From an uncultured Candidatus Saccharibacteria bacterium (GTDB lineage Bacteria > Patescibacteriota > Doudnabacteria > UBA920): a DNA stretch of 64,000 nucleotides. The notes under the pieces were generated by a model. That model had not been told where the DNA came from, searched no databases, and worked only from the letters and a program-made list of their open reading frames with translations. The position numbers and the translations under genes were made by a program. Every line of letters begins with the position of its first letter. The first letter of the stretch is position 1. Positions 4,295 through 60,239 of the stretch are shown here, one piece after another. The DNA lies in contig CAYGEJ010000003.1 of NCBI GenBank assembly GCA_964348935.1, positions 7,287-71,286 of the forward strand, given 5' to 3'.

Positions 4295-7200
4295 TTAAGG
4301 AATTTCAATAATTATTGGTACGCCTTTTCCAGTGTTAAACAAGATTAAAGGGGTGGAGCTAATTGGAGTAGTGGCCGCAACTCCAGCGCTTCTATTATAA
4401 CCAATTATGAACGAGTTTTGGAATCTGGCGGTAGACTGTGTGTATCCGGTTGGTATTGCTAATTGAGCTTCAAAAGTTAAAGCTCTTCTTAGTCCACTTG
4501 GGACATTATTTGCTGTTCCGGTAAGATTAAATACCAAAGTCTGGTTTGGAACCGTTCCAAATGCACAATATCGATTATTACCACTAGGCGTACAAGAACT
4601 ACCAGCAACTGCTCCGTCGTAAGTTAACTTTATTCCATTATAATAGGCGTTAAAGTCGGACTTGGTTGAAGGTTTCACCAAATTTGTTAAGGTATCCCTG
4701 ATAGTAATATTGGAAGAAGTTCCAGTACCACCGTCATTACACAAGTTAATTTGGAAAGTTACCACGTCGTTAAGTTTCAAATTAACCCCACCTGATAACG
4801 GATCTGTGCCTCCACAATTATTACTAGAGTATGCTGTTCCATTTATTCCAATAATATCTTTATCGGAAGTATTTAAGTTACCTGAGCCACAAGCTAAAAC
4901 CGCAGTCGGATTAAGGTTAGCTCCGCTATTTGGCGCAACTTTGGCTGTCTCAACTCCGCCAACTACAGCAGAAACCCAATAGTAATAAATACCTGCAGAA
5001 ACTGAATTTGTCCAAGTTAATGAAGTTAAACCACTCTGTACTAAATCTCCAGCTACCGGCGCTGACCCGGTGGTATTTCTGTAGACGTTGTATGAGGTCG
5101 CACTCGATACTGCAGACCAATTTATAGTCATTTGTGCGCAGGTTGAATTATCCAAAGAAACAGTGGTTGGACCTGGACCCCCAGATGGTGCGGTAACCGT
5201 GTAGGTAACTGTTAAAGTTCGACTGGTTGGATTCGAAGCTGGATCAGTTACAGTAATTATACAAGTATGAGTACCTACACCTACCGTACTTGGGCTATCC
5301 ACAGTAATTGCAACAGGTGTATATTGACCGACCGGAGATGAAGGCACAGCTCCAGTAACTGCAGGACCGGCATTATTAACTCCATTTACCCTACACCAGC
5401 TTTGGTTGCTAATTTCAGAATGCCAGACATCCGCACTACCAGTACTAGTAATTTGCAAAATTTGCTGGGAAGGAGCTGGAGAACCCGTTACTCCACTGAA
5501 AGACATTGTAGTTGGATTAAGCACAAATGAAGCCTGTGGTGCAGCGGTAACATCAACCGTGTCAACAACATTGCTTTGAGCGCAGACATTTGAACCAGTT
5601 CCTGCATTTAAGCTACAGGTAACTGTTTGAGTTCCGACTGTTGCCCCAGCAGTACAGTTAAACACTGCGGTGGTTTTATCATAAGAAGCCCATGTACAAG
5701 TACCACCACCTGTGACACTTGCGGTAATAGCATCTATACCGCTGCTGTCGTAATCACAGCGTGTAGTAAACGCCCCTCCTGCGGTAACTGAGGATGGAGA
5801 AACACTGCTTCTGGTAGGATCCGGGTTGTAATGCAAAGGTTCGCAAACCGGACCACCTCCGGAAGCAGTGCAATAATAATGGATAGTTCCGTCCGAGTTT
5901 CTCTTGGTTTGCCATGTTCTATTATTTACATCTGTCCACCTAAAAGGCTGCCCCCATGACTTTGGCGAAACACCTAAGTTTGTCCATGTAATATCTGGTG
6001 CTGGTGGTACCCATCCTGTGTTGGTATTCCATTTCAAATAAGTATTATTGTCTGTACCATAGTGGTAAACACCCCAGGCTGCAGGCGTATCTGTAAATGG
6101 CGGGTAATTTGTTATACCATTTAGGAAATCATAAGAGGAATTCCAGACACAAGGATTACCTAGAGAATAATTACAAGATTGATAGTGTATATTATTTCCC
6201 CAACCCCTTACAACCACAGCGTTTGCCCAATTATTTTGAATATTAGGTGTATTTGGCAAATAAATTCCAACCGGCTGGCTTGGAGTAGAACCACCACCAG
6301 GAATCTCTCTCCAGGTACTGTCACAAATAGCTTGATAGGGATTTACAACAATATTCCTTGTAAAACTGTCATTGTTGGAAGTACTTCCACCCCCAAAACA
6401 AACTATTGAATGAGTATCAGAGGCGGTTACACCTCCCAAAGGAGCGCTTCCATTTGCAGGCCAAGTAGTACCCAAAGAAGTAGCACCTCTAAATATTTCA
6501 CAATTTGTAGCATTGGTAGATGTCCAGACAAGCCCGCCTGTACTATTAGCAACAACATTTATTGGTCCGTCTACTGGTGCGCTTTGAGGCACGGAATCTC
6601 CCCAACCTTTAATGTCTACAACGGGAGCAGGTGCAACATTATAATTAATTCCTGCATCTTGGGGGTTATTAGTTGCGTTGGAGTCTGAAATACGAATTCC
6701 GCAGTCGCTATGCGGACCCACACCCACTATATTTGGAGCGCTTACTGTAACTGTTACATTTTGCGAAGTCCCGGCAGGAACAGTACCAGAAACTGCGCTT
6801 AAATTACACCAAGTAGCAGCACCATTCCTACTAAAAGTCCAGTTTAAAGACGAGCTACCGGTATTGGCTATATTTAAAGTTTGACCTGCAGGAGCTGTAC
6901 CACCGAAAATTCCGTTGAATGTCAAGTTTGTTGGCGAAAGTACTATTGTAGGCTTAAGAATATTACGAGTAAAGCTATCGGTATTAGAGGTTAACCCAGT
7001 AGAGCCTGTACAAACTATAGAATGCGTGTCTGACGAACTTACACCTCCCAAAGGAGCACTTCCATTTGCAGGCCAAGTAGTGCCCAAAGAAGTAGCACCT
7101 CTAAATATTTCACAACTTGAGGCATTGGACGTCCATATCAGACCTCCGGAAGTCATAGGATTAACATTAATTGGTCCGTCTACTGGTGCGCTTTGAGGCA

Positions 7201-8752
7201 CAGAATCTCCCCAACCTTTAATGTCTACAATAGGGGCGCCTACAATATTACGAGTAAAGCTATCGGTATTAGAGGTTAACCCAGTAGAGCCTGTACAAAC
7301 TATAGAATGCGTGTCTGACGAACTTACACCTCCCAAAGGAGCACTTCCATTTGCAGGCCAAGTAGTGCCCAAAGAAGTAGCACCTCTAAATATTTCACAA
7401 CTTGAGGCATTGGACGTCCATATCAGACCTCCGGAAGTCATAGGATTAACATTAATTGGTCCGTCTACTGGTGCGCTTTGAGGCACAGAATCTCCCCAAC
7501 CTTTAATGTCTACAATAGGAGGACATGCAGAAAGAGCAACTGGAGCACTTGCTCGAGTTGCAGAAAAGTTTCCAGAGGGGTTATGTAAGGAGTCTACCCA
7601 ATAATAATAAGTAGCTCCCGTAGGAGGATTGTCTACAAAACTTGTTACGTTTCCAACAACAGCAAAGGGCGTTGCAGGCTGCGCATTAGTAGTATGTCTA
7701 TAAAGCCTATAAGCATTTGCGTCCTGACCAGTGCCCCAAGTTAAAGTAATAGTTCTACTTGGGCAAATCCCTGTTATTGTATTTAAAAATGCAGGAACAC
7801 CTGTAATAACACGTAAAACCGGGTAAACAGTTGCGGTAGGCCCGGCGGCATAACCAACCCCAGTAACCGTAATTGAATAGTTACCAACACCAAGACCTGA
7901 AGTATTATTAACGGTTAGGGTGGCGGTATCATGTCCAAATGTAGTTGGGTCAACTACATTTGGCTCTGGGTCGCCATCTGAATCATAACTTGTTAGGGTT
8001 GGAGTAATAGTACAGTTTGCTCCCGCAGGACATACTGCCGACAAAGTTACCTTATTATAAAATCCTCCAAGCATTCGTACAGTTAAAAAATAAGATGTAC
8101 TACCGCCTCTTGTAATTGTTCTTGAAGAAGGGTCAACTATTATTTGAATACCGGGAACTACAACTGGAGGACAATCGCTTGAACAGTTGGCATTATTTTC
8201 TCCGGAAGAACAATAGGAATCACCACAGTATGGACCAACACCACTAGTGGTACTGCAAGTAGGATCTACCGGTTGGCAACTTCCCGGCGAACCAGCAGAC
8301 AAATCACAGAAAGTGTCACAAACAATGCTAGGAGGATGTGGACAATCTGCATTAGTTGAACAACCGCTTACAGGGGCAGAAGAGCAGGTATTTTCCTGTA
8401 AGGTTTTTGCACAAACCGCTCCTGGAGCAGACTGGGTTCCAGTAAAAACGCCCGTTACATCATCGTAACAATTCAACGATGCTATTGCATATGAGTAGCT
8501 GCAAGACTCGCATGTAGAATAAATTTGCTGTCCTGCGGGAGTAAAAGTGCAAACACCAGTTAGCTCTCTGGTACTAGCATTAGGATCAGGACCAGAACCA
8601 CAACCTGTAGGGAGCCCTGAAATACAGTATGCATTTACTTGAAAAACATAAAAAAAAGAAAAAATAAATAAAAATACAACTAGAAATTTAAAATTAAATA
8701 TATAATTATTTAAGAATAAAAAACTGCTTCTTATTAAATTTTTAAAATTCAT
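4295..8752 (-). CDS. Giant secreted/cell-surface protein: signal peptide, Cys-rich N-terminal region, then Thr/Ser/Gly-rich beta-domain repeats (Fn3/Ig-like)
   Basis: 1485 aa. N-terminal hydrophobic segment ends ...QVNA. More than 40 Cys fall in the first 200 residues. A 95-aa module occurs 3 times. Confidence 0.7.
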   Translation of the reverse strand: MNFKNLIRSSFLFLNNYIFNFKFLVVFLFIFSFFYVFQVNAYCISGLPTGCGSGPDPNASTRELTGVCTFTPAGQQIYSTCESCSYSYAIASLNCYDDVTGVFTGTQSAPGAVCAKTLQENTCSSAPVSGCSTNADCPHPPSIVCDTFCDLSAGSPGSCQPVDPTCSTTSGVGPYCGDSYCSSGENNANCSSDCPPVVVPGIQIIVDPSSRTITRGGSTSYFLTVRMLGGFYNKVTLSAVCPAGANCTITPTLTSYDSDGDPEPNVVDPTTFGHDTATLTVNNTSGLGVGNYSITVTGVGYAAGPTATVYPVLRVITGVPAFLNTITGICPSRTITLTWGTGQDANAYRLYRHTTNAQPATPFAVVGNVTSFVDNPPTGATYYYWVDSLHNPSGNFSATRASAPVALSACPPIVDIKGWGDSVPQSAPVDGPINVNPMTSGGLIWTSNASSCEIFRGATSLGTTWPANGSAPLGGVSSSDTHSIVCTGSTGLTSNTDSFTRNIVGAPIVDIKGWGDSVPQSAPVDGPINVNPMTSGGLIWTSNASSCEIFRGATSLGTTWPANGSAPLGGVSSSDTHSIVCTGSTGLTSNTDSFTRNILKPTIVLSPTNLTFNGIFGGTAPAGQTLNIANTGSSSLNWTFSRNGAATWCNLSAVSGTVPAGTSQNVTVTVSAPNIVGVGPHSDCGIRISDSNATNNPQDAGINYNVAPAPVVDIKGWGDSVPQSAPVDGPINVVANSTGGLVWTSTNATNCEIFRGATSLGTTWPANGSAPLGGVTASDTHSIVCFGGGSTSNNDSFTRNIVVNPYQAICDSTWREIPGGGSTPSQPVGIYLPNTPNIQNNWANAVVVRGWGNNIHYQSCNYSLGNPCVWNSSYDFLNGITNYPPFTDTPAAWGVYHYGTDNNTYLKWNTNTGWVPPAPDITWTNLGVSPKSWGQPFRWTDVNNRTWQTKRNSDGTIHYYCTASGGGPVCEPLHYNPDPTRSSVSPSSVTAGGAFTTRCDYDSSGIDAITASVTGGGTCTWASYDKTTAVFNCTAGATVGTQTVTCSLNAGTGSNVCAQSNVVDTVDVTAAPQASFVLNPTTMSFSGVTGSPAPSQQILQITSTGSADVWHSEISNQSWCRVNGVNNAGPAVTGAVPSSPVGQYTPVAITVDSPSTVGVGTHTCIITVTDPASNPTSRTLTVTYTVTAPSGGPGPTTVSLDNSTCAQMTINWSAVSSATSYNVYRNTTGSAPVAGDLVQSGLTSLTWTNSVSAGIYYYWVSAVVGGVETAKVAPNSGANLNPTAVLACGSGNLNTSDKDIIGINGTAYSSNNCGGTDPLSGGVNLKLNDVVTFQINLCNDGGTGTSSNITIRDTLTNLVKPSTKSDFNAYYNGIKLTYDGAVAGSSCTPSGNNRYCAFGTVPNQTLVFNLTGTANNVPSGLRRALTFEAQLAIPTGYTQSTARFQNSFIIGYNRSAGVAATTPISSTPLILFNTGKGVPIIIEIP
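6959..7528. repeat. Two perfect tandem copies of a 285-bp unit (95 aa) inside the giant gene; a diverged third copy lies at roughly 6390-6690
   Basis: Identical text from 6959 and from 7244. The overlapping plus-strand ORFs 6915..7196 and 7221..7481 translate identically. Confidence 0.85.
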
Positions 8753-8881
8753 ATTTTTATTTCAATTATACTTATTTTTTATATAATAATATTATAACAC
8801 ATTTTTTAACAGTACATAAGTAAACACAAGTTGATAACTTTACTAATTATAAAAAATACATTAGCCGATAAATTTAAAGCT

Positions 8882-8915
8882 TTGTCAACTTGCTTTTTTA
8901 GTCATTTTATGTAAT
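8882..8915 (+). promoter_or_regulatory. Candidate sigma70-type promoter in AT-rich DNA upstream of the TIG-like gene
   Basis: TTGTCA / TTGCTT -35-like elements are spaced from a TAATAAT -10-like element. This is a weak call. Confidence 0.3.
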
Positions 8916-8958
8916 AATCTTGGTAGATCCTTACCAAGTCCAAGGAGGACTTGAAGCG

Positions 8959-11124
8959 ATGACAAAACTAACTCAATTGTTAGTGGTTTTGGCATTTGCA
9001 ACAACCGTTGCCCTTGCTCAACCCACCATAAAAGTGAGCGGATTGTTGGGGGAAGTTACCCCCATTCGGATGCTTACAAACAGCCGAGGAGACACTGTCG
9101 TTTCGGCAAGAACGAATACAAGCGCTGTTCTATTGTTGAAGCTAGCCAATCAAAGCGATTTCACAGTCGCCTACAATGACCAAGGCAAAACCGACAAGAT
9201 TGCACTGGGCGGGTCTGGTAACCCGTTTACAAATGACCTAAACATCCAGAATTTTGCCGTCTACTTCACCACGCTGGACAGCCTGGGAACACAACGAAAA
9301 ACTTGGGAAATGCCTTTATCGAGCGGGCCTGCGAAAATGCTCGGCGAATTGGGTATGGATGTAAAAGTCCTACTAGTAAATTTTAACTACAGTCCAGTCG
9401 TGAAAAAACTGGAACTGGTGTCTGCGGTCAGGGAAGATTCCAGTGGTCGAAAGCTGATGTATGCAATTATCACTGGATATCTCGGATACTTTTCTCTTCA
9501 ACCCGATGGCAGCTTCCGAGAAGTAATGCTTACCGGTCACAATCAGTATATTTTTCCACCATTTGGCGTCAAAGTCGGATCGACCGACATAGACTTCACC
9601 ATAATTGGTGGTGCGGGTATATTGGAGCTAAGTAATTACAACCTCCAAACCAAGACCCAAAAACTGGTCGCCAAAACAGGTAGCAGCGTCGGGAACGAAA
9701 GCTTGCAAACAATGGCGGCAAGTATGGACAGCTGGAAAAAAACGACATTCCGCTACAAAACTGCCAACGGCGGTCGGGTGGCACAGGTCGTGGACGGTCA
9801 GACGACTGTCCTTTACGCCAGCAGTCAAGCAGTCGACGACCACGCGGTCAACATCGCGCACCTCTTCGTGCGCCAAGGGAACCGTGTTCTCATGGTCGAC
9901 GGCTTGAACTCCGCAATCCCAATCGCCTCGGTCGGCGACACGTTCGCCGGCAAGACGATTCGGGAGTTCTCTCTTCCAACACTAACCGCGCACGGGTGCT
10001 CGGTGAACTTCATGGCAAAAACCGACACTACTTCAGTGTCCGGCTCGCCGCATCTGTTTACGACTGCCCTCCCCTGTGTTTTGCAGGTACCGACAACTGA
10101 AGTAAAAGTTGGCGAAGCGGTAATTCTTTATGGTCAGAACCTTGGAACGGTCAACGACACGAAAATCGTTGACGCCGATAATGGCAATGTGTATACTCCA
10201 AACCTCATTACAAATGATACGGTAGTGTTCACGGCGCCTCGAATTGGCACCCGGTTCAAGGTAAAGACTAAAGGTCTTACCAGCAACACCTTTACGGTGA
10301 GAATTAACTCTGCTGTCGTACCGGTGATTGACAAGATCACAACGGCAACCGGCACCACCGGCGCAGTAGCTCCGAATGGGTTGTTCACTGTTTGGGGACA
10401 GAATTTGTCTCCTATCGTGTCAACCCGGTTCAACTACTACAACCCTGGCATCACGGTAGCCACTCGGCTACCCCTGCCTCGGCTTCTCGCCGGTGCAAAA
10501 GTGCTTGTAAACGGAGCAGAAATTCCGCTCCTGTTTGGTACCTGCTACGAGAGTGGCATCTGTCAATTCAACGCACAAGCACCAAGCACGCTCTTTGGCA
10601 CCACCGCTACGGTGGAGGTCCAGCGCTACACCGACGTTAACGGACGAGCACTTGAGGCCACAAGCCAAAAGTTCACCGTCGCCGTCCAACCCGTTGCCCC
10701 TGTAGTGTTCAGCTTTCCGAAAAATGAAGAAACACCTGACATTTCGGAACTGACTGTAATGCAAAATGGCGACAAAGCCTACCAGCTTGTAACCAGAAGT
10801 ACGCCCATGAAAGGTGGGCAAACCGTCGTATTGTATTCTACTGGTTTCGGACTAACCAGTCCTGAAATTCCTGTCGGCGAAGCTGCTGGAGAAACCTACG
10901 CTCCAGTTACTAGCCAAGTGAAGACTTGGCTCAAGTACAGGACCGGAGGCAATGAGAAGACTGAAGAGGCGGGCAATGTGGCAGTAGCATCACCACAGTT
11001 TCCTGGGGTAAACCAGGTAAACGTCAAATTGCCTGTTGTCCTTCCCGACCCTGGCACCAAGACGTTTCTCGTCGTAAAAGTTGGAGAGGAGTATGTTCCT
11101 GATATAGAACTCCCTTACAACTAG
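8959..11124 (+). CDS. Secreted IPT/TIG-like repeat protein, compositionally foreign
   Basis: The start was moved to ATG 8959, which follows an AAGGAGGA Shine-Dalgarno. The signal peptide is MTKLTQLLVVLAFATTVALA. Motifs VILYGQNLGT and LFTVWGQNL repeat. The C-terminal ...GNVAVASPQFPGVNQVNVKLP resembles acidobacterial TIG-protein C-termini. A 60-nt spot count gives about 52% GC. Confidence 0.6.
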   Translation: MTKLTQLLVVLAFATTVALAQPTIKVSGLLGEVTPIRMLTNSRGDTVVSARTNTSAVLLLKLANQSDFTVAYNDQGKTDKIALGGSGNPFTNDLNIQNFAVYFTTLDSLGTQRKTWEMPLSSGPAKMLGELGMDVKVLLVNFNYSPVVKKLELVSAVREDSSGRKLMYAIITGYLGYFSLQPDGSFREVMLTGHNQYIFPPFGVKVGSTDIDFTIIGGAGILELSNYNLQTKTQKLVAKTGSSVGNESLQTMAASMDSWKKTTFRYKTANGGRVAQVVDGQTTVLYASSQAVDDHAVNIAHLFVRQGNRVLMVDGLNSAIPIASVGDTFAGKTIREFSLPTLTAHGCSVNFMAKTDTTSVSGSPHLFTTALPCVLQVPTTEVKVGEAVILYGQNLGTVNDTKIVDADNGNVYTPNLITNDTVVFTAPRIGTRFKVKTKGLTSNTFTVRINSAVVPVIDKITTATGTTGAVAPNGLFTVWGQNLSPIVSTRFNYYNPGITVATRLPLPRLLAGAKVLVNGAEIPLLFGTCYESGICQFNAQAPSTLFGTTATVEVQRYTDVNGRALEATSQKFTVAVQPVAPVVFSFPKNEETPDISELTVMQNGDKAYQLVTRSTPMKGGQTVVLYSTGFGLTSPEIPVGEAAGETYAPVTSQVKTWLKYRTGGNEKTEEAGNVAVASPQFPGVNQVNVKLPVVLPDPGTKTFLVVKVGEEYVPDIELPYN

Positions 11125-11175
11125 CCTGTCATCGCTTCGACCTCCTTTTCCCCGCACATCGCGCAGGGATGAAAC

Positions 11176-11222
11176 AAACAAGCTAGACTTTCCCAACCAG
11201 GGATCGCTTAGCTTGTTTTTTA
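11176..11222 (+). terminator. Intrinsic terminator for the TIG-like gene
   Basis: AACAAGCTAG...CTTAGCTTGTT stem followed by TTTTTT. The loop contains TCCCAACCAGGGA. Confidence 0.6.
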
Positions 11223-11282
11223 TTCCCTTTTAATTACAGATATTTTGACAAAAATCCAGGACTAAATAGCTGTGCAAGATAA

Positions 11283-11330
11283 TTAAAAAACACCATACTA
11301 TTTATCCCCAACCAGGGATAGAATGGTGTT
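11283..11330 (-). terminator. Intrinsic terminator for the minus-strand gene 11345..11842
   Basis: AACACCAT...ATGGTGTT stem preceded by an A-tract. The loop contains TATCCCCAACCAGGGATA. Confidence 0.55.
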
Positions 11331-11344
11331 TAGTGATTTTTACT

Positions 11345-11842
11345 TTAGTTAGCAGGAATTGTACTGGAAAGGTTTTGCACTACGGTTACATCTATTGTAA
11401 CTTTTTTAGATAAATCATTTTGGTCAACCAAAATATACGCACGACCTGCATCTTTAGTTGCGTTTATGGTAAAAATTTTAGCTTGTTTATTTTCAACCAA
11501 AGTTGTTGCCCACCCCATATTAATCAAAAACTTCTCATACTCAATAGCAGCAGTTTTTTGAGCTAATTTACTTTCATAAATTAAAGTTCCCTGCACCGTA
11601 CCACTGGTAGCATTACTATTACTTGAAGACCTCGATATTACATTAGCACCAGGCTCTAATATCCATTCGGCGGTTATTCCCGGTGGATACATCTCTGCTA
11701 GAACAACTGTTTGTGATTCTTTTTTGTCTTCAATTATAGTTTGTGTAAACTTTTTATTCAAATATCCTCTTAAATAAAAAATTATTCCACTAACGAAAAT
11801 TAAAACTAGTATAAGATATATAAATTTTTTTTGGTTTGTCAT
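11345..11842 (-). CDS. N-terminally membrane-anchored hypothetical protein
   Basis: 165 aa, with a single TM followed by a Ser/Thr-rich soluble domain. Confidence 0.4.
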   Translation of the reverse strand: MTNQKKFIYLILVLIFVSGIIFYLRGYLNKKFTQTIIEDKKESQTVVLAEMYPPGITAEWILEPGANVISRSSSNSNATSGTVQGTLIYESKLAQKTAAIEYEKFLINMGWATTLVENKQAKIFTINATKDAGRAYILVDQNDLSKKVTIDVTVVQNLSSTIPAN

Positions 11843-13950: not shown

Positions 13951-15243
13951 ATGCGTAAACGAACCCGATATCTACTACTCTTAGTTGGCTTTATATTCTT
14001 TCTCATTTTTGCACCTATTATTGTGCTTTATGTCAGAGGTGTCGCCTACGATTTTAAACAAGGAAGATTTGTTAAGACCGGTATTTTTGCAATTAAAACC
14101 AACCCAACCCACCTGGATGTTTTTATTAATGGCGAACTCAAGCAAAAAAAGGAAGGCGACATAAAATTCCTACTACCCGGCGAATATGAACTCCAATTAC
14201 ATAAAGAAGGTTATTTTAATTGGCAAAAAAGATTAACCATATACGAAGGTAAAGTTACCTGGGCAAGCCCACAACCTTACAAGATACATTTACTTAAACA
14301 AAATTCTCCGACCAACTTAGCTCAAGACGTATTAGATTTTTACCTTAATGACTTTAAGCTAGTCTATCTAACTAAAAACAGTATTAACATAGGGAGTATT
14401 AATGGCGAACGAGCAGACTTGATACTGCCAAAGTCAGTTAATACAATTCTTACCTCAGACAATAATAATTCATTCCTTTTAACAAATTCCGATTCCACAA
14501 CCAATAAACCTGTTGTATTATTTTTTAACACAGACACCAAACTTTTTAAAGACTTAAGTGACGTATTTATTTCTATTCCCAAATATTTGACCCTCGACGA
14601 AAACCAAGTCTACTATTTAGACGATTCTTCTCTTATTGCTTACGACATTTTAACCAAATCTAAAAAAATACTTCTCGAGAATATTAAAGCCTTCAACTTT
14701 GAGAATAATTCACTTTACTACGTTCAACAAAAAAATAACATAAATTCACTAAATATTAGTAACTCCTCTTTTACTCAAAATCAAGTCTTGGTAATCAACT
14801 TACCAGAATTTTCATCAGGACAAATAATTATCACTTTTGATAAACAAATACTTATATTGGCTGATGGTAATTTATACAAGGCCAACAACACTCTAGAAAA
14901 AATTGCTGACAACATTATAAATTTTAACTTTGACCAATTAAATTCCAATACCTCAATTTTACATTTAGGACAATTTGATTACTACAACCCATCATCACAA
15001 AACCTAAGCTTTGTCACTAGAACAAGCGAAGAAATTAAAAACTTAGTGGTTAAAAACAATATCGGCTACGCTTTCTTTATAAATAATACCGGGCTTAATG
15101 CCATAGAACTGGATACAAGGGATAAACAAAATCAGTATCTCTTAAGCCAAGGTACTGAAATAAAAAAGTTTCGTATTTATAATTCAGAACAAAATTTAAT
15201 ATTTTTAGACCAAACTTCGCTTAAAAATCTTGAGTTGCGATAA
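13951..15243 (+). CDS. Membrane-anchored protein with an N-terminal PEGA-like domain
   Basis: 430 aa. N-terminal TM, then LPGEYELQLHKEGYFNWQKRL (PEGA-like). Asn-rich beta-rich remainder. Confidence 0.45.
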   Translation: MRKRTRYLLLLVGFIFFLIFAPIIVLYVRGVAYDFKQGRFVKTGIFAIKTNPTHLDVFINGELKQKKEGDIKFLLPGEYELQLHKEGYFNWQKRLTIYEGKVTWASPQPYKIHLLKQNSPTNLAQDVLDFYLNDFKLVYLTKNSINIGSINGERADLILPKSVNTILTSDNNNSFLLTNSDSTTNKPVVLFFNTDTKLFKDLSDVFISIPKYLTLDENQVYYLDDSSLIAYDILTKSKKILLENIKAFNFENNSLYYVQQKNNINSLNISNSSFTQNQVLVINLPEFSSGQIIITFDKQILILADGNLYKANNTLEKIADNIINFNFDQLNSNTSILHLGQFDYYNPSSQNLSFVTRTSEEIKNLVVKNNIGYAFFINNTGLNAIELDTRDKQNQYLLSQGTEIKKFRIYNSEQNLIFLDQTSLKNLELR

Positions 15244-54200: not shown

Positions 54201-54316
54201 AAATATCTTAGTGTCAAAATTTAGTGAATATTTATTTGGATTTAATGGCTTTCCTATGCGGGAAAAACTATAAAATCTTAATCTGGTGCTCGCTAAACAA
54301 TCTCCTGGAGGAGAAA

Positions 54317-54487
54317 ATGAAACAAGACCACTCGAACCTTGATTGGTTCGTAAGGGATTTCATGACAGTGATCATAATCCTTTTCGTGTTGTTTGCCCCG
54401 ACCGTCTGGCTGACACTGGATACGGCCAACATTAAAGGAAATCCATCGGCCTACGTTTGGGAGCGAACCGTCGTCGCAATTAAATAG
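54317..54487 (+). CDS. 56-aa small membrane peptide (one TM)
   Basis: A GGAGGAG Shine-Dalgarno lies 6 nt upstream. Hydrophobic core VIIILFVLFAPTVWLTL. This is the shorter in-frame start within track ORF 54224..54487. Confidence 0.45.
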   Translation: MKQDHSNLDWFVRDFMTVIIILFVLFAPTVWLTLDTANIKGNPSAYVWERTVVAIK

Positions 54488-54509
54488 CGATGGCGAATAA
54501 AACAAAAAT

Positions 54510-54557
54510 GGAAGCGTGTCGGCTCCCCCCACGCGCTTCCACCAATTTTCTTTTTTT
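54510..54557 (+). terminator. Intrinsic terminator after the small peptide gene
   Basis: GGAAGCGTG...CACGCGCTTCC stem followed by a T7 run. Confidence 0.6.
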
Positions 54558-54671
54558 ACTACTTACTACACAAGCTAATATTTCTTCTAGCAAAATTGTT
54601 TACAAATCCTTGTAACCAGTTTTGTCAGAAGGATAGCAGTATCAAATTCTTCGACAACAGGGAGAATCCCC

Positions 54672-54968
54672 ATGCAAATAGTTCTGGACCAAAAAGGCTT
54701 CTACGAAGCCGCACTGCTCGGCCTCGAGGCGCAAAAAACGCGCATCGAGAAAATGATCACCGGCATTAAGCAACTCGCCGGCAAAAAACCGGTAACGACG
54801 AACATCGCCGAGGCGGCCAAAGTCGCCATCGGCGCCCGCAAAAAGCACGCCAACGGTGCCGGCGCCAAACGCAAAAAACGGAACCTGAGCCCCGAAGCTC
54901 GCCAGCGTATCGCCGATGCGCAAAAGAAGCGCTGGGCGGCGTTCCGGAAGGACGGCGCGGCGGCCTAA
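54672..54968 (+). CDS. 98-aa basic Lys/Arg/Ala-rich protein, possibly nucleic-acid-binding
   Basis: Spot counts of about 55% GC. AGGGAGA Shine-Dalgarno. Helical N-terminus, then GARKKHANGAGAKRKKRNLSPEARQRIADAQKKRWAAFRK. Confidence 0.5.
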   Translation: MQIVLDQKGFYEAALLGLEAQKTRIEKMITGIKQLAGKKPVTTNIAEAAKVAIGARKKHANGAGAKRKKRNLSPEARQRIADAQKKRWAAFRKDGAAA

Positions 54969-55013
54969 AGGAGGAATATAGCGAAATATGATGTTTCGCT
55001 CAAACAAACACAC

Positions 55014-55050
55014 GCGGTAGAAGACACTATGTCTTTTACCGCTATTTTTT
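55014..55050 (+). terminator. Intrinsic terminator after the basic-protein gene; its stem overlaps the stop of a 10-codon mini-ORF
   Basis: GCGGTAGAAGACA-CTA-TGTCTTTTACCGC stem followed by a T-run. Confidence 0.5.
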
Positions 55051-55109
55051 ATATTTGCTAAATTTCTATAAAATCTCTAGACTACTATAAAATCACTAAG
55101 GGGGAAACG

Positions 55110-55484
55110 ATGCCTAAACACACCGTCTTCTTTATTTTTTTCGCCCTAGGCCTTAATGCCCAGCAAGCGAGCGAGAGTAAGTTCCGTTGTAGCGACGGGA
55201 ACGTAACTTGGAAACCCGGCAACACGCCGAGCACAAAGGATCAAGGGTCCGCGCAAACGGAGTGCTGCAAGCTCCGCACCAACTACCAAAACTACGGCAA
55301 AGACCAAAAAGACCTGGAGGCATGCAAAAATATACCTCCGGACAAAGAACGTCTTGACCTGTTCTATGTAGAGTGTCGTATGTTCAATATGCCGTGGTGC
55401 TCCTATCTACTCCCCAAATCAATGGGAAAGGACTACTCCACCAAACCCAAACCTCCTGCAAAGGCCACAAAGAAACTCAAGTAA
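55110..55484 (+). CDS. Small secreted Cys-rich protein (8 Cys), Lys-rich C-terminal tail
   Basis: 124 aa. AAGGGGG Shine-Dalgarno. Signal peptide MPKHTVFFIFFALGLNAQQA. The GC is elevated. Confidence 0.5.
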   Translation: MPKHTVFFIFFALGLNAQQASESKFRCSDGNVTWKPGNTPSTKDQGSAQTECCKLRTNYQNYGKDQKDLEACKNIPPDKERLDLFYVECRMFNMPWCSYLLPKSMGKDYSTKPKPPAKATKKLK

Positions 55485-55491
55485 ATCCACC

Positions 55492-55530
55492 GGTCGGGAT
55501 ACCTCTCAGGTTCCCCGACCGCATTTTTTT
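55492..55530 (+). terminator. Intrinsic terminator after the Cys-rich protein gene
   Basis: GGTCGGG...CCCGACC stem followed by a T8 run. Confidence 0.6.
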
Positions 55531-55673: not shown

Positions 55674-56855
55674 CTATTTTAAAATTTTTGTTACAACACC
55701 AGCACCTACAGTGTGCCCACCTTCTCTGATGGCGAATTTACCTTTTTCTTCTAAAGCTACTGGGGTAATTAACTTAACTACCAATTTTACAGTATCTCCA
55801 GGCATAACCATTTCTTGGCCTTCTGGCAAAGTAATGTCACCGGTAACGTCGGTTGTTCTAATGTAGAATTGTGGCTTATAACCTTTAAAGAATGGAGTAT
55901 GACGTCCGCCTTCTTCTTTGGTCAAAACATAAATTTCAGTTTCAAATTCTGTATGTGGGTTAATGGAACCTGGTTTACATAATACTTGTCCGCGTTCTAC
56001 TTCATCTTTCTTAGTACCACGAAGCAAAATACCAGCATTGTCCCCTGCCATACCGCTATCTAACTGTTTATTGAACATTTCAATACCAGTTACAACAGTT
56101 TTTGCTGTTGGCTTAAGACCAACGATTTCAATTTCTTCGTTAATCTTAATTTGACCTCTTTCAATTCTACCTGTGACTACAGTTCCTCTTCCTTCAATTG
56201 AGAAAATGTCTTCGATAGGCATTAAGAAAGGTTGATCAACTTCACGAGTAGGATCAGGGATGTAAGTATCTAAAGTATCAACCAATTTTAAAATAGTTGC
56301 TTCATATTCAGCATCGCCTTCCAAAGCTTTCAAAGCAGAACCACGAATAATTGGAGTATCTTTTCCAGGGAAATCATACTTTGTCAAAAGATCTCTAATT
56401 TCTTCTTCTACTAAGTCCAACAGTTCAGCATCCTGAACCATATCACACTTGTTCATATAAACAACAATGAACTTAACACCTACCTGGTTAGCAAGCAAAA
56501 TATGCTCACGAGTTTGAGGCATTGGACCGTCAGCGGCGGATACCACCAAAATAGCACCATCCATTTGAGCAGCACCAGTTATCATGTTTTTGATATAGTC
56601 AGCGTGACCAGGACAGTCTACGTGAGCGTAGTGTCTCTTGGCGCTTTCGTATTCAACGTGAGCGGTGTTAATGGTAATACCACGGGCTTTTTCTTCAGGA
56701 GCGTTATCGATAGAATCGTATGCTCTTGCTTTTGCTCCTCCAGTTTTGGAAAGCACAGTAGTAATAGCAGCTGTCAAAGTGGTTTTACCGTGGTCAACGT
56801 GACCAATGGTTCCAACGTTGACGTGTGTCTTACTACGGTCAAATTTATCAGCCAT
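55674..56855 (-). CDS. tuf: Elongation factor Tu
   Basis: 393 aa. [14 protein letters not shown] and NKCD G-motifs. Confidence 0.97.
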
Positions 56856-57721: not shown

Positions 57722-58120
57722 TTATATATCATCTAAATCTAATTTTGGACCTTCAAAGTCAAAAGAAGGGTCTATAACTTCTTCTCTCAAATCAACCGCT
57801 CCGGGACGCGTGATTGGATGACCGTCAAACCGAGTAAGATCTGGCGGATGACTAATAACAGTTGGTCCTTTTTCTACTTGTTTATTTGAAATTGCAATAT
57901 CTGATACTACCGGAGTAATATCTTCAGTTAATTGCGCGTTTAATATTTCCTTATTAATTTTTTCAACATCTAGCATTTGCTTCTGTAGTTTACCAATAAG
58001 TAGTTTTTGATACTCCTCTACAGGCATAATTACCAAACTTGCATTCCCCTGCTCGTCCAATATAAAAAACTTTCCTCCATCCGCCTTCGCTAAATTAATA
58101 AGGTCATTTAAATTGTTCAT
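57722..58120 (-). CDS. Hypothetical acidic protein
   Basis: 132 aa, no motif recognised. Confidence 0.35.
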   Translation of the reverse strand: MNNLNDLINLAKADGGKFFILDEQGNASLVIMPVEEYQKLLIGKLQKQMLDVEKINKEILNAQLTEDITPVVSDIAISNKQVEKGPTVISHPPDLTRFDGHPITRPGAVDLREEVIDPSFDFEGPKLDLDDI

Positions 58121-58533
58121 AAGTTTATAAATATTAAGCGTGTCATTCCAGACTCGCCTGCCCTCCTTTGGAGAGATCCGGAATCCATGAATATTCTATA
58201 TTAAGTTTCCCTCCACCAGCTGGCGGATTATCGAGAATGACAAATCAATAACCTCCCTTAATCCCTCCTCTGCAAGGAGGGAAATTACTGCAGTTGCAGT
58301 TATTCCTCTCCCTTTTAGGGGAGAAGGTTAGCCTGCCCGCCGTAGCCTTGGCGAAGGAGGGGTGAGGGTACTTAATCCTCTAACTCTCTTAATTATACTC
58401 GCCCGCTCGGGCATTTACAACTACTATAATTTTTGATATTCTACAGTGTCGTCACTAGCGCCGGCTAAACGACCCAATGCAAACCCGCTTTGAAGTTATT
58501 GGACTAGAATGACCGGTTGAGAGAGGAGGAAAT

Positions 58534-58755
58534 ATGGCACTTGAAGATTCAACAGCTAACACACCCCAAGACGAATCAGATCAAGCAAAACAAGCAAGGA
58601 GAATGCTTCTCCAAGAATTCTTGCTTGCATCAACAGAAAACCCAAGTCTCATCGCTGGGTTTTTTACCGAACCTATCCTTCAAGAAATAGTTGATCGAAT
58701 AACAAAGCGATCAAGACTTCTTACACAGCTGAAAACGGCCTTAAAACGCCGCTAG
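58534..58755 (+). CDS. 73-aa acidic/helical small protein
   Basis: A GAGGAGGA Shine-Dalgarno lies 5 nt upstream. Elevated GC. Followed by a T-rich terminator-like tract. Confidence 0.4.
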   Translation: MALEDSTANTPQDESDQAKQARRMLLQEFLLASTENPSLIAGFFTEPILQEIVDRITKRSRLLTQLKTALKRR

Positions 58756-58913
58756 CACTCTCGCCCAACGTCTACCGACCGCGGGCTTTTTTATTTGCCT
58801 ATTTACATTGCATAATTAATTTGTTATTCTGTACTGTCATCCTGGAACCGGCAGGATAGATACGTCCCAATGTAGGACGGAGTTAGTTTAGTACCGATAG
58901 TTAGGAGGAAACT

Positions 58914-59141
58914 ATGAGAAGATACATCATACCTTTGTCAGGGTTAGTGGTTTGCCTTGAATTATTGTATTGGGAGGCAACCCATAGAGACATGATTCCA
59001 CAGTTGTCTGACGGCATCAAAATAACGATGCTGATCATGACTCTCTTGGGGATGGGGGTGTTCGTATTCGGCATTGCCAAACCGCTGTGGAATGACTCCT
59101 GGAAGTACTGGGAGAAACGATTGAGAGGAGCGACGAAATGA
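58914..59141 (+). CDS. 75-aa two-TM membrane peptide
   Basis: TAGGAGGAA Shine-Dalgarno. Hydrophobic helices LVVCLELLYW and ITMLIMTLLGMGVFVFGIA. Its stop overlaps the next start (ATGA). Confidence 0.45.
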   Translation: MRRYIIPLSGLVVCLELLYWEATHRDMIPQLSDGIKITMLIMTLLGMGVFVFGIAKPLWNDSWKYWEKRLRGATK

Positions 59142-59359
59142 CCGCACGACACAAGTGCACTGTCTCCGGAAGAGTGCCTGTTATGCAAGCACGACGGAAT
59201 TCAAACATTATCCCATTTGGGGAAACCGTCGGTCTAGAAGGACCCACATGGAAAGGAGTACGCAAGACCGTCCCCATTCTACTATACGAAGGGAAAGATA
59301 AGTACGACACTGCATCTATCCCCATCGCATTCTGCCCGTTCTGCGGGAAAAAACTCTAA
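59138..59359 (+). CDS. 73-aa zinc-ribbon-like small protein (CxxS...CPFC)
   Basis: Start ATGA coupled to the upstream gene, preceded by GAGAGGAG. The Cys pair FCPFCGKK is at the C-terminus. Confidence 0.4.
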   Translation: MTARHKCTVSGRVPVMQARRNSNIIPFGETVGLEGPTWKGVRKTVPILLYEGKDKYDTASIPIAFCPFCGKKL

Positions 59360-59377
59360 CCAAAACCTCGGCGCAGT

Positions 59378-59436
59378 GCCCAGAGCCAGCGGTTCAATTA
59401 ATACCTGAACTTCTGGCGCTGGGCTTTTTTATTTTT
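59378..59436 (+). terminator. Intrinsic terminator after the coupled pair
   Basis: GCCCAGAGCCAG...CTGGCGCTGGGC stem followed by a T6AT5 run. Confidence 0.6.
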
Positions 59437-59463
59437 AATTCTGGTTGATCACGATTTTGATAT

Positions 59464-59502
59464 AAAAAAATTTGAGCCGTCCACCTAAAAGGCAGACGGC
59501 TC
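59464..59502 (-). terminator. Intrinsic terminator for the minus-strand gene 59514..60065
   Basis: GAGCCGTC...GACGGCTC stem preceded by an A7 run. Confidence 0.5.
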
Positions 59503-59513
59503 ATGCGCCAGGA

Positions 59514-60065
59514 TTAATCGAGAGTGATTTTTGACAGGGGGTAGGGATGTACGTATCGGTAACCTTCCTTAACATCTAAGAATTCGAACCTGACCCAGCT
59601 GCCTTTGAACCAACCACTACTTGTGGATAGGAATGTTCTGCTGGAATCGCCAATTCCCACCGTTCCGCAAGAAATCTCACAACGGGAATTCAGGGGTGGC
59701 CAAGGCAAACCATTTTCTGTGAACTCGACGCTGTTTTGGTTAGGTTCTTGTTGTTCCCATTCTAAGATGGTGCATACAACCGGAAACCGAGCTTCCAGGA
59801 TCCTTACCACAACCCTATCAAGATTACCCGGCACATCAAAAAGAAATTCGACGCGTTGTCCCACCTTCAAGTTGTGTGGGTAAATACCTCTATCCCTAAC
59901 CACCTTGGGCGTCTTATCCGAAGACGTAAGCACCAACCACAACCCTTGCAACCCAATAATGCTTTTGCATGGCTTAAATGGGAAAATTATAATAAAAAAC
60001 CCTGCAGCTAAAATAGAAAGGACAGCGACTACAATCATCACGATAGCCTGACTTAAAATCTTCAT
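59514..60065 (-). CDS. N-terminally membrane-anchored extracytoplasmic protein
   Basis: The start was set at the internal Met (MKIL...), which follows a GGAGGAGAAGAG Shine-Dalgarno; the track ORF begins 8 codons earlier at a non-ATG start. One TM. The body has moderately elevated GC. Confidence 0.45.
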   Translation of the reverse strand: MKILSQAIVMIVVAVLSILAAGFFIIIFPFKPCKSIIGLQGLWLVLTSSDKTPKVVRDRGIYPHNLKVGQRVEFLFDVPGNLDRVVVRILEARFPVVCTILEWEQQEPNQNSVEFTENGLPWPPLNSRCEISCGTVGIGDSSRTFLSTSSGWFKGSWVRFEFLDVKEGYRYVHPYPLSKITLD

Positions 60066-60130
60066 CTCTTCTCCTCCAGTTTGTATCAAAAAAACACTTT
60101 ATAACAATTTCGCGCTTATGTCAATTGTAA

Positions 60131-60162
60131 AAGGGCTAACCCCATATGGGGTTAGCCCTTTA
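60131..60162 (-). terminator. Hairpin 3' of fusA
   Basis: AAAGGGCTAACCCC-ATAT-GGGGTTAGCCCTTT is a perfect 14-bp stem. The T-tract on the minus strand is short. Confidence 0.45.
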
Positions 60163-60239
60163 TCTGTTTTATCTGTTTTAATCCGCGCCTGCCTGCCAAA
60201 GATTGAGGCATAACCGCTTGCGGGCAGGCATCCGCGGTC

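Follow-up and report, generated by a model that had tools for sequence, protein, structure and literature searches.

Gene 8959-11124 differs sharply in composition from the rest of the window (the entire 64,000-nucleotide stretch of DNA analysed here). The same odd composition recurs at the same spot in many diverged relatives, which argues against a recent import. Nor is there support for a recent transfer from a donor of high GC. We tentatively read the gene as an old surface-protein cassette that is laterally exchanged, with selection on the transcript as a possible contributor; this is the reading we prefer, at somewhat less than even confidence. Atypical GC content and codon usage are routinely taken as signs of recent horizontal transfer, and the anomaly here is as strong as that of a textbook island. 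Since it is common to same-locus orthologues in synonymously saturated genomes, the standard transfer inference fails.

Composition, relatives and divergence

The GC content of the gene is 0.504 (0.54, 0.43 and 0.539 at the first, second and third codon positions). GC3 of the other 61 open reading frames of the window averages 0.294 (sd 0.067), which places the gene at z = 3.7 (0.54 versus 0.29 +/- 0.07) and bears out its description as compositionally foreign in GC and codon usage. Measured in 200-nt intervals, GC changes from 0.16 (8600-8899) to 0.44-0.60 (8900-11200) and returns to about 0.33. Base use at four-fold sites is nearly flat (A.24, C.30, G.22, T.24), compared with A.30, C.14, G.12 and T.45 in the background of the window, and it also differs from acidobacterial genes, where four-fold G+C is 0.78-0.92. 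In every locus of AT-rich context, the GC-rich block is coextensive with the transcript. The whole unit, 5' UTR and terminator included, acts as a cassette whose synonymous composition is its own and nearly unbiased.

Selection of optimal codons at translation was rejected as a cause: EF-Tu and EF-G prefer T-ending and shun G-ending codons, which the target gene does not (four-fold G 0.22, versus 0.03 in the highly expressed genes of the host). A strand or replication-orientation effect was rejected because another plus-strand gene, 13951-15243, has a GC3 of 0.30, and amino-acid composition as the sole cause because GC3 itself is shifted. For the divergent neighbour 4295-8752 (GC 0.43), amino-acid composition alone accounts for the raised GC, since its codon use is native (GC3 0.27).

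The nearest relatives, at 37-60% identity, are on AT-rich contigs of candidate-phyla-radiation (CPR) type; the one exception among relatives above 37% identity is on a GC-rich contig, beside an integrase. GC-rich context was found for two of the 12 family loci, L121 and L124, and in L121 the homologue directly follows the C-terminus of a tyrosine recombinase. In the nine loci of AT-rich context (window, L001, L085, L088, L089, L122, L123, L125 and L126), GC3 of the target is 0.50-0.61; the neighbours have a GC3 of 0.12-0.40, or a flank GC of 0.22-0.31. A giant upstream surface-protein gene is homologous in six loci (window, L001, L085, L088, L089, L122) and weakly so in L123, and the convergent downstream gene of about 160 aa in three (window, L085, L088). 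The clade {P0001, P0002, P0005-P0009/P0154} received 100% bootstrap and is set apart with CPR-context proteins. The protein clade is small and nearly confined to contigs of CPR (Patescibacteria) type. The window itself belongs to the CPR, its MreB falling into a cluster of at least 90% identity with MreB of Candidatus Doudnabacteria and Patescibacteria; DnaJ of L088 clusters with Candidatus Parcubacteria.

Beyond these relatives, all 80 of the 80 kept matches of the GTDB scan were Acidobacteriota, mostly Bryobacterales. The acidobacterial proteins share 24-37% identity in the C-terminal domain only, and an ancient acidobacterial-type ancestry of this module is plausible. GTDB species representatives and JGI metagenomes held no relative closer than 37%, only distant ones of acidobacterial type. 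No relatives occurred in IMG/VR, so a phage reservoir is unsupported. A profile search of a 5.8-billion-protein index returned the gene and its one orthologue and nothing else; an alignment of 12 sequences proved too diverse to serve in scanning for loci.

We compared synonymous divergence at the locus with that of its flanks. Between L085 and L088, the four-fold identity excess is 0.236 in the target, 0.242 in DnaJ, 0.208 in HI0933 and 0.267 in a 148-aa gene, and all four have accumulated about 1.1 substitutions per site. The synonymous divergence of the target equals that of the flanking genes, and this pair has therefore descended vertically since its split. Four-fold G+C of the target is 0.48 in both, versus a background of 0.30. 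Deeper pairs are synonymously saturated (excess 0.02-0.10), and four-fold G+C of the target is still 0.46-0.57 there.

The window and L001 gave a different picture. Target four-fold G+C is 0.52 and 0.53, respectively, over backgrounds of 0.26 and 0.09, and the two genes form a mosaic: the N-terminal halves share 29% amino-acid identity and are essentially unalignable as DNA, while the C-terminal halves share 92% (88% at the nucleotide level). The breakpoints, at about 10060 and 11147, are sharp. In the big upstream neighbour, synonymous sites of the same pair are saturated. A target of a diversity-generating retroelement was rejected, as it is the C-terminus that is conserved and the N-terminal propeller that varies.

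Locus organization and predicted protein

The features of the locus are collected in Table 1.

Table 1. Features at and around gene 8959-11124 (positions in the window)
Feature	Position	Strand	Remarks
Divergent neighbour	4295-8752	-	1485 aa, secreted-type, Cys-rich, Ig/BACON-like repeats; weak BACON_2 match; first gene of the three-gene surface locus
Putative promoter block, AT-rich (TTGTCA ... TGTAATAAT)	8881-8918	+	conserved 40-nt block, 3 mismatches (92%) between window and L001
5' arm of helix	8942-8964	+	SD AAGGAGG, spacer, AUG, codon 2 (3 nt)
Coding sequence	8959-11124	+	721 aa; four predicted parts (signal peptide, propeller, TIG-like, Soli_cterm)
Putative signal peptide	8959-9021	+	residues 1-21; read by eye, helix predicted at residues 2-18
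Predicted beta-propeller	9028-10068	+	residues 24-370; roughly 7-bladed, about 29 strands in AlphaFold model
High-identity tract	10060-11147	+	76-96% nucleotide identity to L001; spans TIG-like segment, Soli_cterm and 3' arm
IPT/TIG-like beta-sandwich	10084-10308	+	residues ~376-450; aligns with the Pfam TIG region of homologues
Soli_cterm (TIGR03437)	10342-11100	+	residues 462-714 of 721; NCBIfam HMM
3' arm of helix	11127-11147	+	anti-start and anti-SD TGTCATCGCTTCGACCTCCTT; begins 3 nt past the stop codon
Intrinsic terminator of target	11173-11221	+	long hairpin, then T-run; -28.7 kcal/mol, z = -3.3; GC-rich block ends here
Terminator of convergent gene	11281-11338	-	loop with 13-nt motif CCCAACCAGGGAT, also in the terminator of the target
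Convergent downstream gene	11345-11842	-	165 aa, membrane-anchored, third locus member; GC3 0.22; 46-56% identity to downstream genes of L085 and L088

The initial annotation had described the target as the only plus-strand gene in a long minus-strand run. This holds between 281 and 13828 and is not absolute, the next plus-strand gene being 13951-15243. The textbook Shine-Dalgarno sequence was confirmed (AAGGAGGA at 8942-8949, 9 nt 5' of the ATG at 8959), as was the AT-richness of the promoter region (GC 0.16-0.25 upstream of the gene). A simple sigma-70 consensus scan did not call the promoter block, which we infer to be a putative promoter from its conservation; the intergenic DNA around it aligns poorly between the window and L001. 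The N-terminal ~400 aa of the divergent neighbour's product are 36-58% identical to the upstream gene in L001, L085, L088, L089 and L122.

Three further assemblies, from different runs, carry an identical gene 8959-11124 with identical flanks (0-2 substitutions relative to the window). A chimeric assembly was rejected because the junctions are identical in these independent assemblies. The annotated flanks contain no mobility genes, and neither a tRNA scan nor an Rfam scan of the whole 64-kb window gave a match. The gene is single-copy within the window. Elsewhere in the window, a second GC-rich island gene (54672-54968) has a homologue in Bryobacteraceae with 53% identity; the presence of two separate Bryobacterales-like islands is a hint that this CPR lineage may have an ecological partner.

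Read by eye, the N-terminus of the product (MTKLTQLLVVLAFATTVALA, followed by QP) has the n- and h-regions and the AXA motif of a Sec signal, with MTK, LTQLLVVLAFATTV and ALA (before QP) as n-, h- and c-regions. The protein would thus be secreted, as the initial annotation had suggested, and we predict a Sec-exported surface protein. The proposed TIGR03437-type C-terminus was recovered by HMM scan with the NCBIfam model (a paralog_domain) at 100.8 bits (cut-off 29.05; E 9.3e-29), and the match spans profile positions 3-218 of 225.

The proposal of multiple IPT/TIG domains failed. Pfam TIG (PF01833) had no match in the product at E <= 0.1, residues 24-370 are predicted to form a propeller instead, and a single TIG-equivalent segment precedes Soli_cterm. 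In homologues, the region aligned to this segment scored 25.3 (P0006), 22.7 (P0008), 24.3 (P0012) and 30.4 bits (P0013) with Pfam TIG, whose gathering threshold is 20.9 bits. Among the 47 aligned family members, 14 have a Pfam TIG match, and many match propeller families. The AlphaFold model was computed from this 47-sequence alignment (pLDDT 88.4) and replaced an earlier, unusable one from two sequences (pLDDT 36). Its top Foldseek matches were propeller-plus-Ig proteins (ROS1, plexins, MET, integrin alpha, sialidase). A PDB sequence search found no family member with a solved structure, and the propeller sequence has no detectable relative beyond its own orthologue. The variable propeller is likely the ligand- or host-binding part of the predicted protein.

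Structure of the transcript

We tested mRNA structure against synonymous shuffles inside 150-nt blocks. Eight of the nine orthologues in AT-rich context had mean z values of -1.1 to -2.5 (L126, -0.76), and the effect on the sense strand was about twice that on the antisense strand. Among 29 genes of the window, EF-Tu ranked first (-1.69) and the target second (-1.53); the 28 genes other than the target, EF-Tu included, averaged -0.17 (sd 0.49). Structure excess as a unique trait of the target was rejected, as EF-Tu equals it, and EF-Tu does so at a GC3 of 0.28, so high GC is not required. Because the excess equals that of the EF-Tu mRNA, it suggests that the target message may be stable and well expressed.

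The Shine-Dalgarno sequence and start codon can pair with the sequence just past the stop codon in a helix of 21 bp, which contains a 12-nt perfect inverted repeat (I17). The duplex has -33.5 kcal/mol (the runner-up among 61 genes, -16.1), a value reached in 0 of 2,000 shuffles. It belongs to the minimum free energy structure of the full-length transcript (2.3 kb in the window), both here and in L001, and the 3' arm is unpaired if the 3' UTR is folded alone. In L001, the helix has -31.1 kcal/mol (1-2 of 2,000 shuffles), with one compensatory C-G to G-C pair and one broken pair; the distant member L126 has a helix of -23.8 kcal/mol (4 of 2,000 shuffles). It is absent from L085, L088, L089, L122 and L125. 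One G-U pair within the arms holds for the sense RNA only.

The pairing of the Shine-Dalgarno sequence and start codon with 21 post-stop nucleotides would close the mRNA while it is untranslated. In the closed state, initiation could be repressed, or a substrate for a double-strand-specific RNase could form. A terminating ribosome would cover the 3' arm, and the message would stay open.

Competing explanations and known systems

According to the initial annotation, the gene came from a high-GC donor, possibly the host or a neighbouring soil bacterium, and then captured a local promoter. The strongly atypical composition, the Soli_cterm domain and the GC-rich island gene 54672-54968 with its Bryobacteraceae homologue (53%) are in line with a recent, direct acquisition of this kind. 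However, homologues outside a CPR context are at most 37% identical and restricted to the C-terminal domain, diverged CPR genomes hold orthologues with the same flanks, L001 shares the promoter block and both UTRs in conserved form, neither a mobility gene nor a tRNA is nearby, and the synonymous composition is not donor-like. The best matches of the similarity search were largely CPR genes of the same composition, an outcome the annotation itself had counted against its proposal, and the nearest relatives are syntenic and in AT-rich CPR-type contigs. Recent acquisition is largely refuted by the syntenic orthologues and appears very improbable to us. Alternatively, the ancestor of the CPR clade might have received the gene once, long ago, from an acidobacterial-type donor of very high GC, with amelioration still incomplete; this would fit with the overwhelming occurrence of TIGR03437 proteins in Acidobacteriota. 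For L085/L088 alone, our own calculation indicates that about 0.5 substitutions per site and lineage could lower four-fold G+C from about 0.8 to 0.48. But synteny dates the insertion before the deepest, saturated splits (excess 0.02-0.10), so the back-calculated ancestral GC would exceed 1, which is impossible. In addition, all lineages share one value despite backgrounds of 0.09-0.30, and decay has gone no further in L001 than in the window, though the background of L001 is far more AT-biased; we regard this scenario as improbable. Hardly credible is the idea that the flanking inverted repeat forms no RNA helix and instead delimits, as terminal inverted repeats, a mobile DNA cassette. The arms do lie at both edges of the GC-rich block, yet the repeat is missing from syntenic orthologues that share the GC anomaly, no transposase or target-site duplication was seen, the arms hold the Shine-Dalgarno sequence, the start codon and the G-U pair valid only in sense RNA, and a compensatory change keeps the pairing.

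Selection on the transcript could also keep synonymous G+C at about 0.5 under clade-wide vertical descent, with an mRNA that is structured, RNase-resistant or slowly translated. The match of GC-rich block and transcription unit in every AT-rich-context locus favours this, as do the stationary composition over saturated divergence, the co-divergence of L085/L088 with their flanks and the sense-strand structure excess in most orthologues; the 5'-3' helix, strong Shine-Dalgarno sequence, promoter and terminator suggest a tightly controlled message. It conflicts with the comparable or partial structure excess that EF-Tu and EF-G achieve with native AT-rich codons, with the flat codon use, which lacks a preferred set, unlike the highly expressed genes of the host, with the native GC3 of the other secreted beta-rich neighbour, and with the window/L001 mosaic, which shows recombination at the locus. 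We know of no precedent for mRNA-level selection sustaining a GC3 shift of about 25 points. We consider this explanation unlikely; if true, it would represent an unusual mRNA-level constraint that overrides genomic mutation bias. In its strongest form, which is more doubtful still, transcript selection would have kept the gene in a compositional equilibrium of its own, with GC3 about 25 points higher than in the genome, throughout the history of the CPR clade, with an EF-Tu-like mRNA and, in some lineages, an end-to-end helix opened by terminating ribosomes; composition would then be a functional signature and not a record of transfer. Under lateral exchange of an old cassette, the reading we prefer, whole or partial cassettes would recombine among lineages of differing GC, and composition would stay atypical; selection on the transcript may add to its maintenance. 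Exchange is directly indicated in one pair, window/L001, for which housekeeping genes to calibrate L001 were lacking, whereas L085/L088, the pair with housekeeping flanks, looks purely vertical. Also against it, no GC-neutral reservoir population was seen among the 12 family loci, IMG/VR, GTDB representatives and JGI metagenomes, and exchange alone fails to explain why the edges of the GC-rich block match the transcript ends in every lineage. The part given to the transcript is in turn challenged by the structure excess that EF-Tu reaches at low GC3 and by the lack of the end-to-end helix in most other orthologues. If cassette exchange is true, the locus would be a recombining surface-recognition system of CPR bacteria and the hypervariable propeller a candidate host-attachment determinant.

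Like the TIGR03437 ('Solibacter uncharacterized C-terminal domain') proteins of Acidobacteriota (Bryobacterales, Solibacter), the product has a C-terminal ~250 aa far above the model cut-off and a predicted N-terminal beta-propeller of variable type, followed by an IPT/TIG-like domain and Soli_cterm. It differs from them in its CPR host and in an identity of just 24-37%; instead of the large paralogue expansion of Solibacter and other Acidobacteriota, one copy is present, at a conserved locus. A literature search found no paper mentioning the TIGR03437 family. The O-antigen (rfb) and capsule clusters of Enterobacteria are surface-antigen loci with persistently atypical GC. By analogy, the locus described here may share with them a hypervariable surface product, conserved flanks, mosaic alleles and a composition that is atypical across lineages. 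In contrast to these clusters, it is GC-rich in an AT-rich genome and encodes one protein instead of a polysaccharide pathway, and one pair indicates allele exchange. In the predicted model, the order of a propeller followed by Ig-like or IPT domains resembles Sema-PSI-IPT receptors (plexin, MET), ROS1, integrin alpha and propeller-plus-Ig sialidases. With TM-scores of 0.16-0.29 and 8-13% identity, this likeness concerns architecture only and implies neither homology nor a ligand.

The helix has counterparts in other bacteria. In icaR of Staphylococcus aureus, an anti-SD in the 3' UTR pairs with the 5' UTR (PMC3868564), hbs of Bacillus subtilis has a 5'/3'-UTR interaction (PMC5737220), and there is precedent for long-range anti-SD effects (PMC12697547). 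As in icaR and hbs, a pyrimidine-rich anti-SD past the stop codon is complementary to the gene's own Shine-Dalgarno region, and a block of initiation, a change in RNase access or both are predicted. Unlike those two, the present helix, with arms 2.2 kb apart, is known from computation alone, and it is much longer, with 21 bp over Shine-Dalgarno sequence, spacer, AUG and codon 2. While the icaR element is located far into a long 3' UTR, the 3' arm here begins 3 nt past the stop codon, within the footprint of a terminating ribosome. The helix is thus a candidate for translation-coupled closure of an mRNA and adds to the few known 5'/3'-UTR interactions.

Composition and domain architecture of the GC-rich gene

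The initial annotation had described the gene at 8959–11124 as compositionally foreign, and its base composition confirms this. GC content is 0.504 and GC3 0.539, versus a mean GC3 of 0.294 (sd 0.067) over the remaining 61 window ORFs, of which a few are GC-rich too. In 200-nt windows, GC rises from 0.16 upstream to 0.44–0.60 at about 8900–11200 and is about 0.33 thereafter. Four-fold degenerate sites use the four bases almost evenly (A.24, C.30, G.22, T.24), versus A.30, C.14, G.12 and T.45 in native genes. The big divergent neighbour (1485 aa) has a GC content of 0.43 too, but with GC2 0.57 and GC3 0.27, so its raised GC stems from amino-acid composition only. Three further assemblies from separate sequencing runs carry the same gene with identical junctions and 0–2 substitutions over 4–22 kb, which rules out an assembly chimera. 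As had been noted, a Shine-Dalgarno sequence (AAGGAGGA) lies 9 nt ahead of the ATG; the N-terminus reads by eye as a Sec signal. The gene does sit on the plus strand within a minus-strand run, but it is not the sole plus-strand gene nearby, as had been claimed (see table).

Across the window, the minus strand carries nearly all genes, and the plus strand has a negative GC skew all along; scans of the 64 kb found neither tRNA genes nor any Rfam family passing the gathering threshold. Within the giant neighbour, a unit of ~95 aa (PIVDIKGWGDSVPQSAPVDG...) is duplicated in tandem. In the ENA assembly of this strain the product is one copy shorter (1390 versus 1485 aa), a sign of either varying copy number or a collapsed repeat. 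Two GC-rich islands (GC 0.45–0.62) lie inside the AT-rich S10-tuf-fusA region. Their ORFs, most of them small and on the plus strand, have AT-rich promoters and terminators of their own and gave no convincing Pfam match.

Coordinates of the features discussed
Feature	Contig	Position	Strand	Remark
GC-rich gene	window	8959–11124	+	721 aa
Giant divergent neighbour	window	4295–8752	-	1485 aa
Duplicated unit in giant neighbour	window	around 6400–7520
Convergent downstream gene	window	11345–11842	-	165 aa
Further plus-strand gene	window	13951–15243	+
Helix, 5' arm	window	8942–8964		AAGGAGG, spacer, AUG, 3 nt
Helix, 3' arm	window	11127–11147		starts 3 nt past stop codon
13-nt motif, two copies	window	11192–11204, 11307–11319
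GC-rich islands	window	54300–55500, 58120–60240
Island ORF	window	54318–54487	+
Island ORF	window	54672–54968	+	98 aa; ~90 homologues at 45–62% identity, one named (Bryobacteraceae MAG)
Island ORF	window	55110–55484	+	secreted, Cys-rich
Island ORF	window	58534–58755	+
Island ORF	window	58914–59141	+
Island ORF	window	59138–59359	+
Island ORF	window	59514–60089	-
tuf	window	55674–56855	-
fusA	window	60240–62363	-
Family member, divergent neighbour and pilus genes	L086	10001–21606
Recombinase C-terminus and P0005 gene	L121	88–255, 488–2848
Shared promoter	L122	~1365–1425
Shared promoter	L089	~6855–6914

The proposed resemblance of the C-terminus to the Soli_cterm module was confirmed by a TIGR03437 match over residues 462–714 (100.8 bits, cut-off 29.05); a Pfam scan of the protein gave no significant match. 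A confident AlphaFold model built on a 47-sequence family alignment (mean pLDDT 88.4) comprised an N-terminal helix (residues 2–18), ~29 beta-strands across residues 24–370 and more beta-sandwich domains beyond residue 370. Top Foldseek matches in the PDB were propeller-plus-Ig/IPT proteins (ROS1, plexin A2, plexin A4, MET, integrin alpha and sialidases), with the low TM-scores expected for flexible multidomain chains; a PDB sequence search found no relative with a solved structure. Pfam TIG was matched in 14 of the 47 aligned family members and various beta-propeller families in many, and in the closest homologues TIG scored above threshold in a segment aligned to residues ~376–450. Given this single TIG-like segment, the propeller model and the family's Pfam matches, the architecture is not the multi-IPT/TIG array first proposed. 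The modelled order is putative signal peptide, propeller, one IPT/TIG-like domain and Soli_cterm. The gene adds a new member to the TIGR03437 protein family; our literature search found no paper mentioning TIGR03437.

A conserved locus in CPR contigs

Among 5.8 billion clustered proteins, the sole close protein besides the target itself was P0002 (60% identity). HMMER, run exhaustively against 1.84 billion cluster representatives, yielded 332 relatives, only 5 of which reached E <= 1e-30; in almost all relatives, the match spanned residues ~320–720 only. The 80 loci kept from a scan of GTDB species representatives all belong to Acidobacteriota, mostly Bryobacterales, and share 24–37% identity in the C-terminal domain, with 63% in one short 83-residue fragment. 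JGI metagenomes held no relative above 36% identity and IMG/VR none. Neighbour joining on the C-terminal 400 aa placed the target in one clade with P0002, P0005, P0006, P0007, P0008 and P0009/P0154 (bootstrap support 100%). P0005, encoded on contig L121, was nested within the CPR clade (88–99%).

The key result of our analysis is the locus context of these relatives, for which contigs of twelve family members were retrieved. A giant surface-protein homologue (36–58% identity over the N-terminal ~400 aa) adjoins the gene divergently in the window, L001, L085, L088, L089 and L122, and weakly in L123. The convergent gene of ~160 aa that follows is homologous in the window, L085 and L088 (46–58% identity). 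We assign the window to the CPR because its MreB falls into a cluster of at least 90% identity with MreB of Candidatus Doudnabacteria and Patescibacteria, and L088 because its DnaJ clusters with Candidatus Parcubacteria; L086 is annotated as Candidatus Paceibacterota. Nine loci (the window, L001, L085, L088, L089, L122, L123, L125 and L126) have an AT-rich context, with neighbours at GC3 0.12–0.40 and upstream DNA at GC 0.22–0.31. In all nine, the gene itself has a GC content of 0.49–0.535 and a GC3 of 0.50–0.61. A foreign composition is conserved across a CPR clade, which is one of the two unusual parts of this system; the other is a predicted helix joining the Shine-Dalgarno/AUG region to the sequence after the stop codon.

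Three members have other surroundings. The L086 member (26% identity, host-like GC3) lies beside a type IV pilus cluster. Together with its PKD/Ig-rich divergent neighbour it directly adjoins genes for pilins, a prepilin peptidase, PilC-, PilB- and PilT-like ATPases and PilO, an adjacency that hints at a functional link to pili or attachment. The P0005 gene lies in DNA of GC 0.5–0.6, immediately 3' of a tyrosine-recombinase C-terminus that includes LLGHSSITVTLDTYSHV; the usual neighbours are missing there, as is excess mRNA structure. The L124 member is likewise in GC-rich DNA. L122 and L089 have a conserved promoter with ATTTTGAATTTTCTGGTATAATAA in common, which in L122 forms a perfect TTGACA-N17-TATAAT. 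The promoter is conserved between them despite synonymous saturation of their coding sequences.

Age and origin of the atypical composition

The initial annotation had explained the composition by acquisition from a high-GC donor. As a measure of divergence we used four-fold-site identity in conserved codons, expressed as excess over chance expectation. Between L085 and L088 this excess was 0.236 for the target and 0.242, 0.208 and 0.267 for the flanking DnaJ, HI0933-like and 148-aa genes. Divergence of the target thus equals that of its housekeeping flanks, at ~1.1 substitutions per site after a Jukes-Cantor-type correction, and in this pair the gene descended vertically. Its four-fold G+C is nonetheless 0.48 in both, against a background of 0.30. 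Deeper pairs are saturated (excess 0.02–0.10), with target four-fold G+C still 0.46–0.57, and since the locus is syntenic, the insertion predates the deep splits. Syntenic CPR orthologues, stationary composition and co-divergence with the flanks thus speak against a recent import. Simple amelioration fails as well, because no possible starting GC leaves all lineages at the same value: four-fold G+C is 0.52 in the window and 0.53 in L001, on backgrounds of 0.26 and 0.09. Translational selection is excluded by the difference from the host's highly expressed genes, EF-Tu and EF-G, whose four-fold sites have T at.55–.58 and G at.03–.04. The anomalous composition is a stable property of the cassette, the target's transcription unit. 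An ancient link to Acidobacteriota is plausible, with indirect support from the second GC-rich gene with a Bryobacteraceae homologue (see table); the acidobacterial homologues have four-fold G+C of 0.78–0.92, unlike the target.

Window and L001 form a mosaic. Their propeller halves share 29% amino-acid identity and are hardly alignable as DNA, whereas from ~10060 to 11147 identity is 76–96% at the nucleotide and 92% at the amino-acid level, falling again past the 3' arm. Conservation extends to a putative promoter block of 40 nt and to ~30 nt past the stop codon. Four-fold excess was 0.589 for the C-terminal half, 0.234 for the N-terminal half (probably biased downward by alignment uncertainty) and 0.057 for the big neighbour. 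The mosaic and the large difference in background GC indicate an exchange, at minimum of the C-terminal module, later than the split of the two genomes. Movement of alleles among lineages of differing GC may have uncoupled the cassette's composition from that of the genome. Bin names in the NCBI taxonomy tentatively suggest a spread of about 41–52% GC within Doudnabacteria. The product would be a putative surface or host-recognition factor with a diversifying propeller and a retained TIG and Soli_cterm part.

mRNA structure and a predicted end-to-end helix

Target mRNAs were predicted to fold 4–8 kcal/mol per window better than controls in which synonymous codons were shuffled within 150-nt blocks, leaving protein and local codon content unchanged. 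Of the nine AT-context orthologues, eight had a mean z between -1.1 and -2.5 (79–100% of windows negative) and L126 a weaker one (-0.76); the antisense strand had about half the excess of the sense strand. Of 29 window genes, only EF-Tu (-1.69) ranked ahead of the target (z -1.53), with EF-G at -0.79; the other 28, EF-Tu included, averaged -0.17 (sd 0.49). Excess structure is a signature common to highly expressed genes and not unique to the target, and EF-Tu has it without elevated GC3. Excess local structure is significant in the tuf and fusA mRNAs (mean z -1.7 and -0.8); z is near zero in most other window genes. Transcript-level selection possibly assists in maintaining the composition.

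The two helix arms are complementary and are predicted to pair in segments of 7 and 14 bp separated by a 2-nt bulge. At -33.5 kcal/mol this helix compares with -16.1 for the best of 60 other genes and was reached by none of 2000 shuffles. When the full 2.3-kb transcript is folded, the minimum-free-energy structure contains it in both the window and L001. The L001 helix (-31.1 kcal/mol) differs by one compensatory C-G to G-C change (ATGAC/GTCAT against ATGAG/CTCAT), with one pair gained and one broken. The distant member L126 has an analogous element (-23.8 kcal/mol, 4 of 2000 shuffles); in the other orthologues no end-to-end helix was found. An anti-Shine-Dalgarno motif within 40 nt of the stop codon occurs in just 2 of 61 window genes. 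In a fold of the isolated 3' UTR, the 3' arm stays unpaired and the terminator hairpin forms further downstream. The loop regions of both convergent terminator hairpins, that of the target and that of the downstream gene, share an identical 13-nt motif, CCCAACCAGGGAT, which occurs nowhere else in the 64 kb; its count is not beyond chance (two or more matches with up to 2 mismatches in 22 of 100 shuffles).

Ongoing translation would hold the message open, because the 3' arm starts within the footprint of a terminating ribosome. Long-range anti-Shine-Dalgarno effects have been measured in B. subtilis (PMC12697547), and 5'/3' contacts can also govern RNase access, as in hbs (PMC5737220). The precedent for sequestration of a ribosome-binding site is icaR (PMC3868564), and in the same manner the predicted helix of the target would mask the ribosome-binding site of untranslated mRNA.
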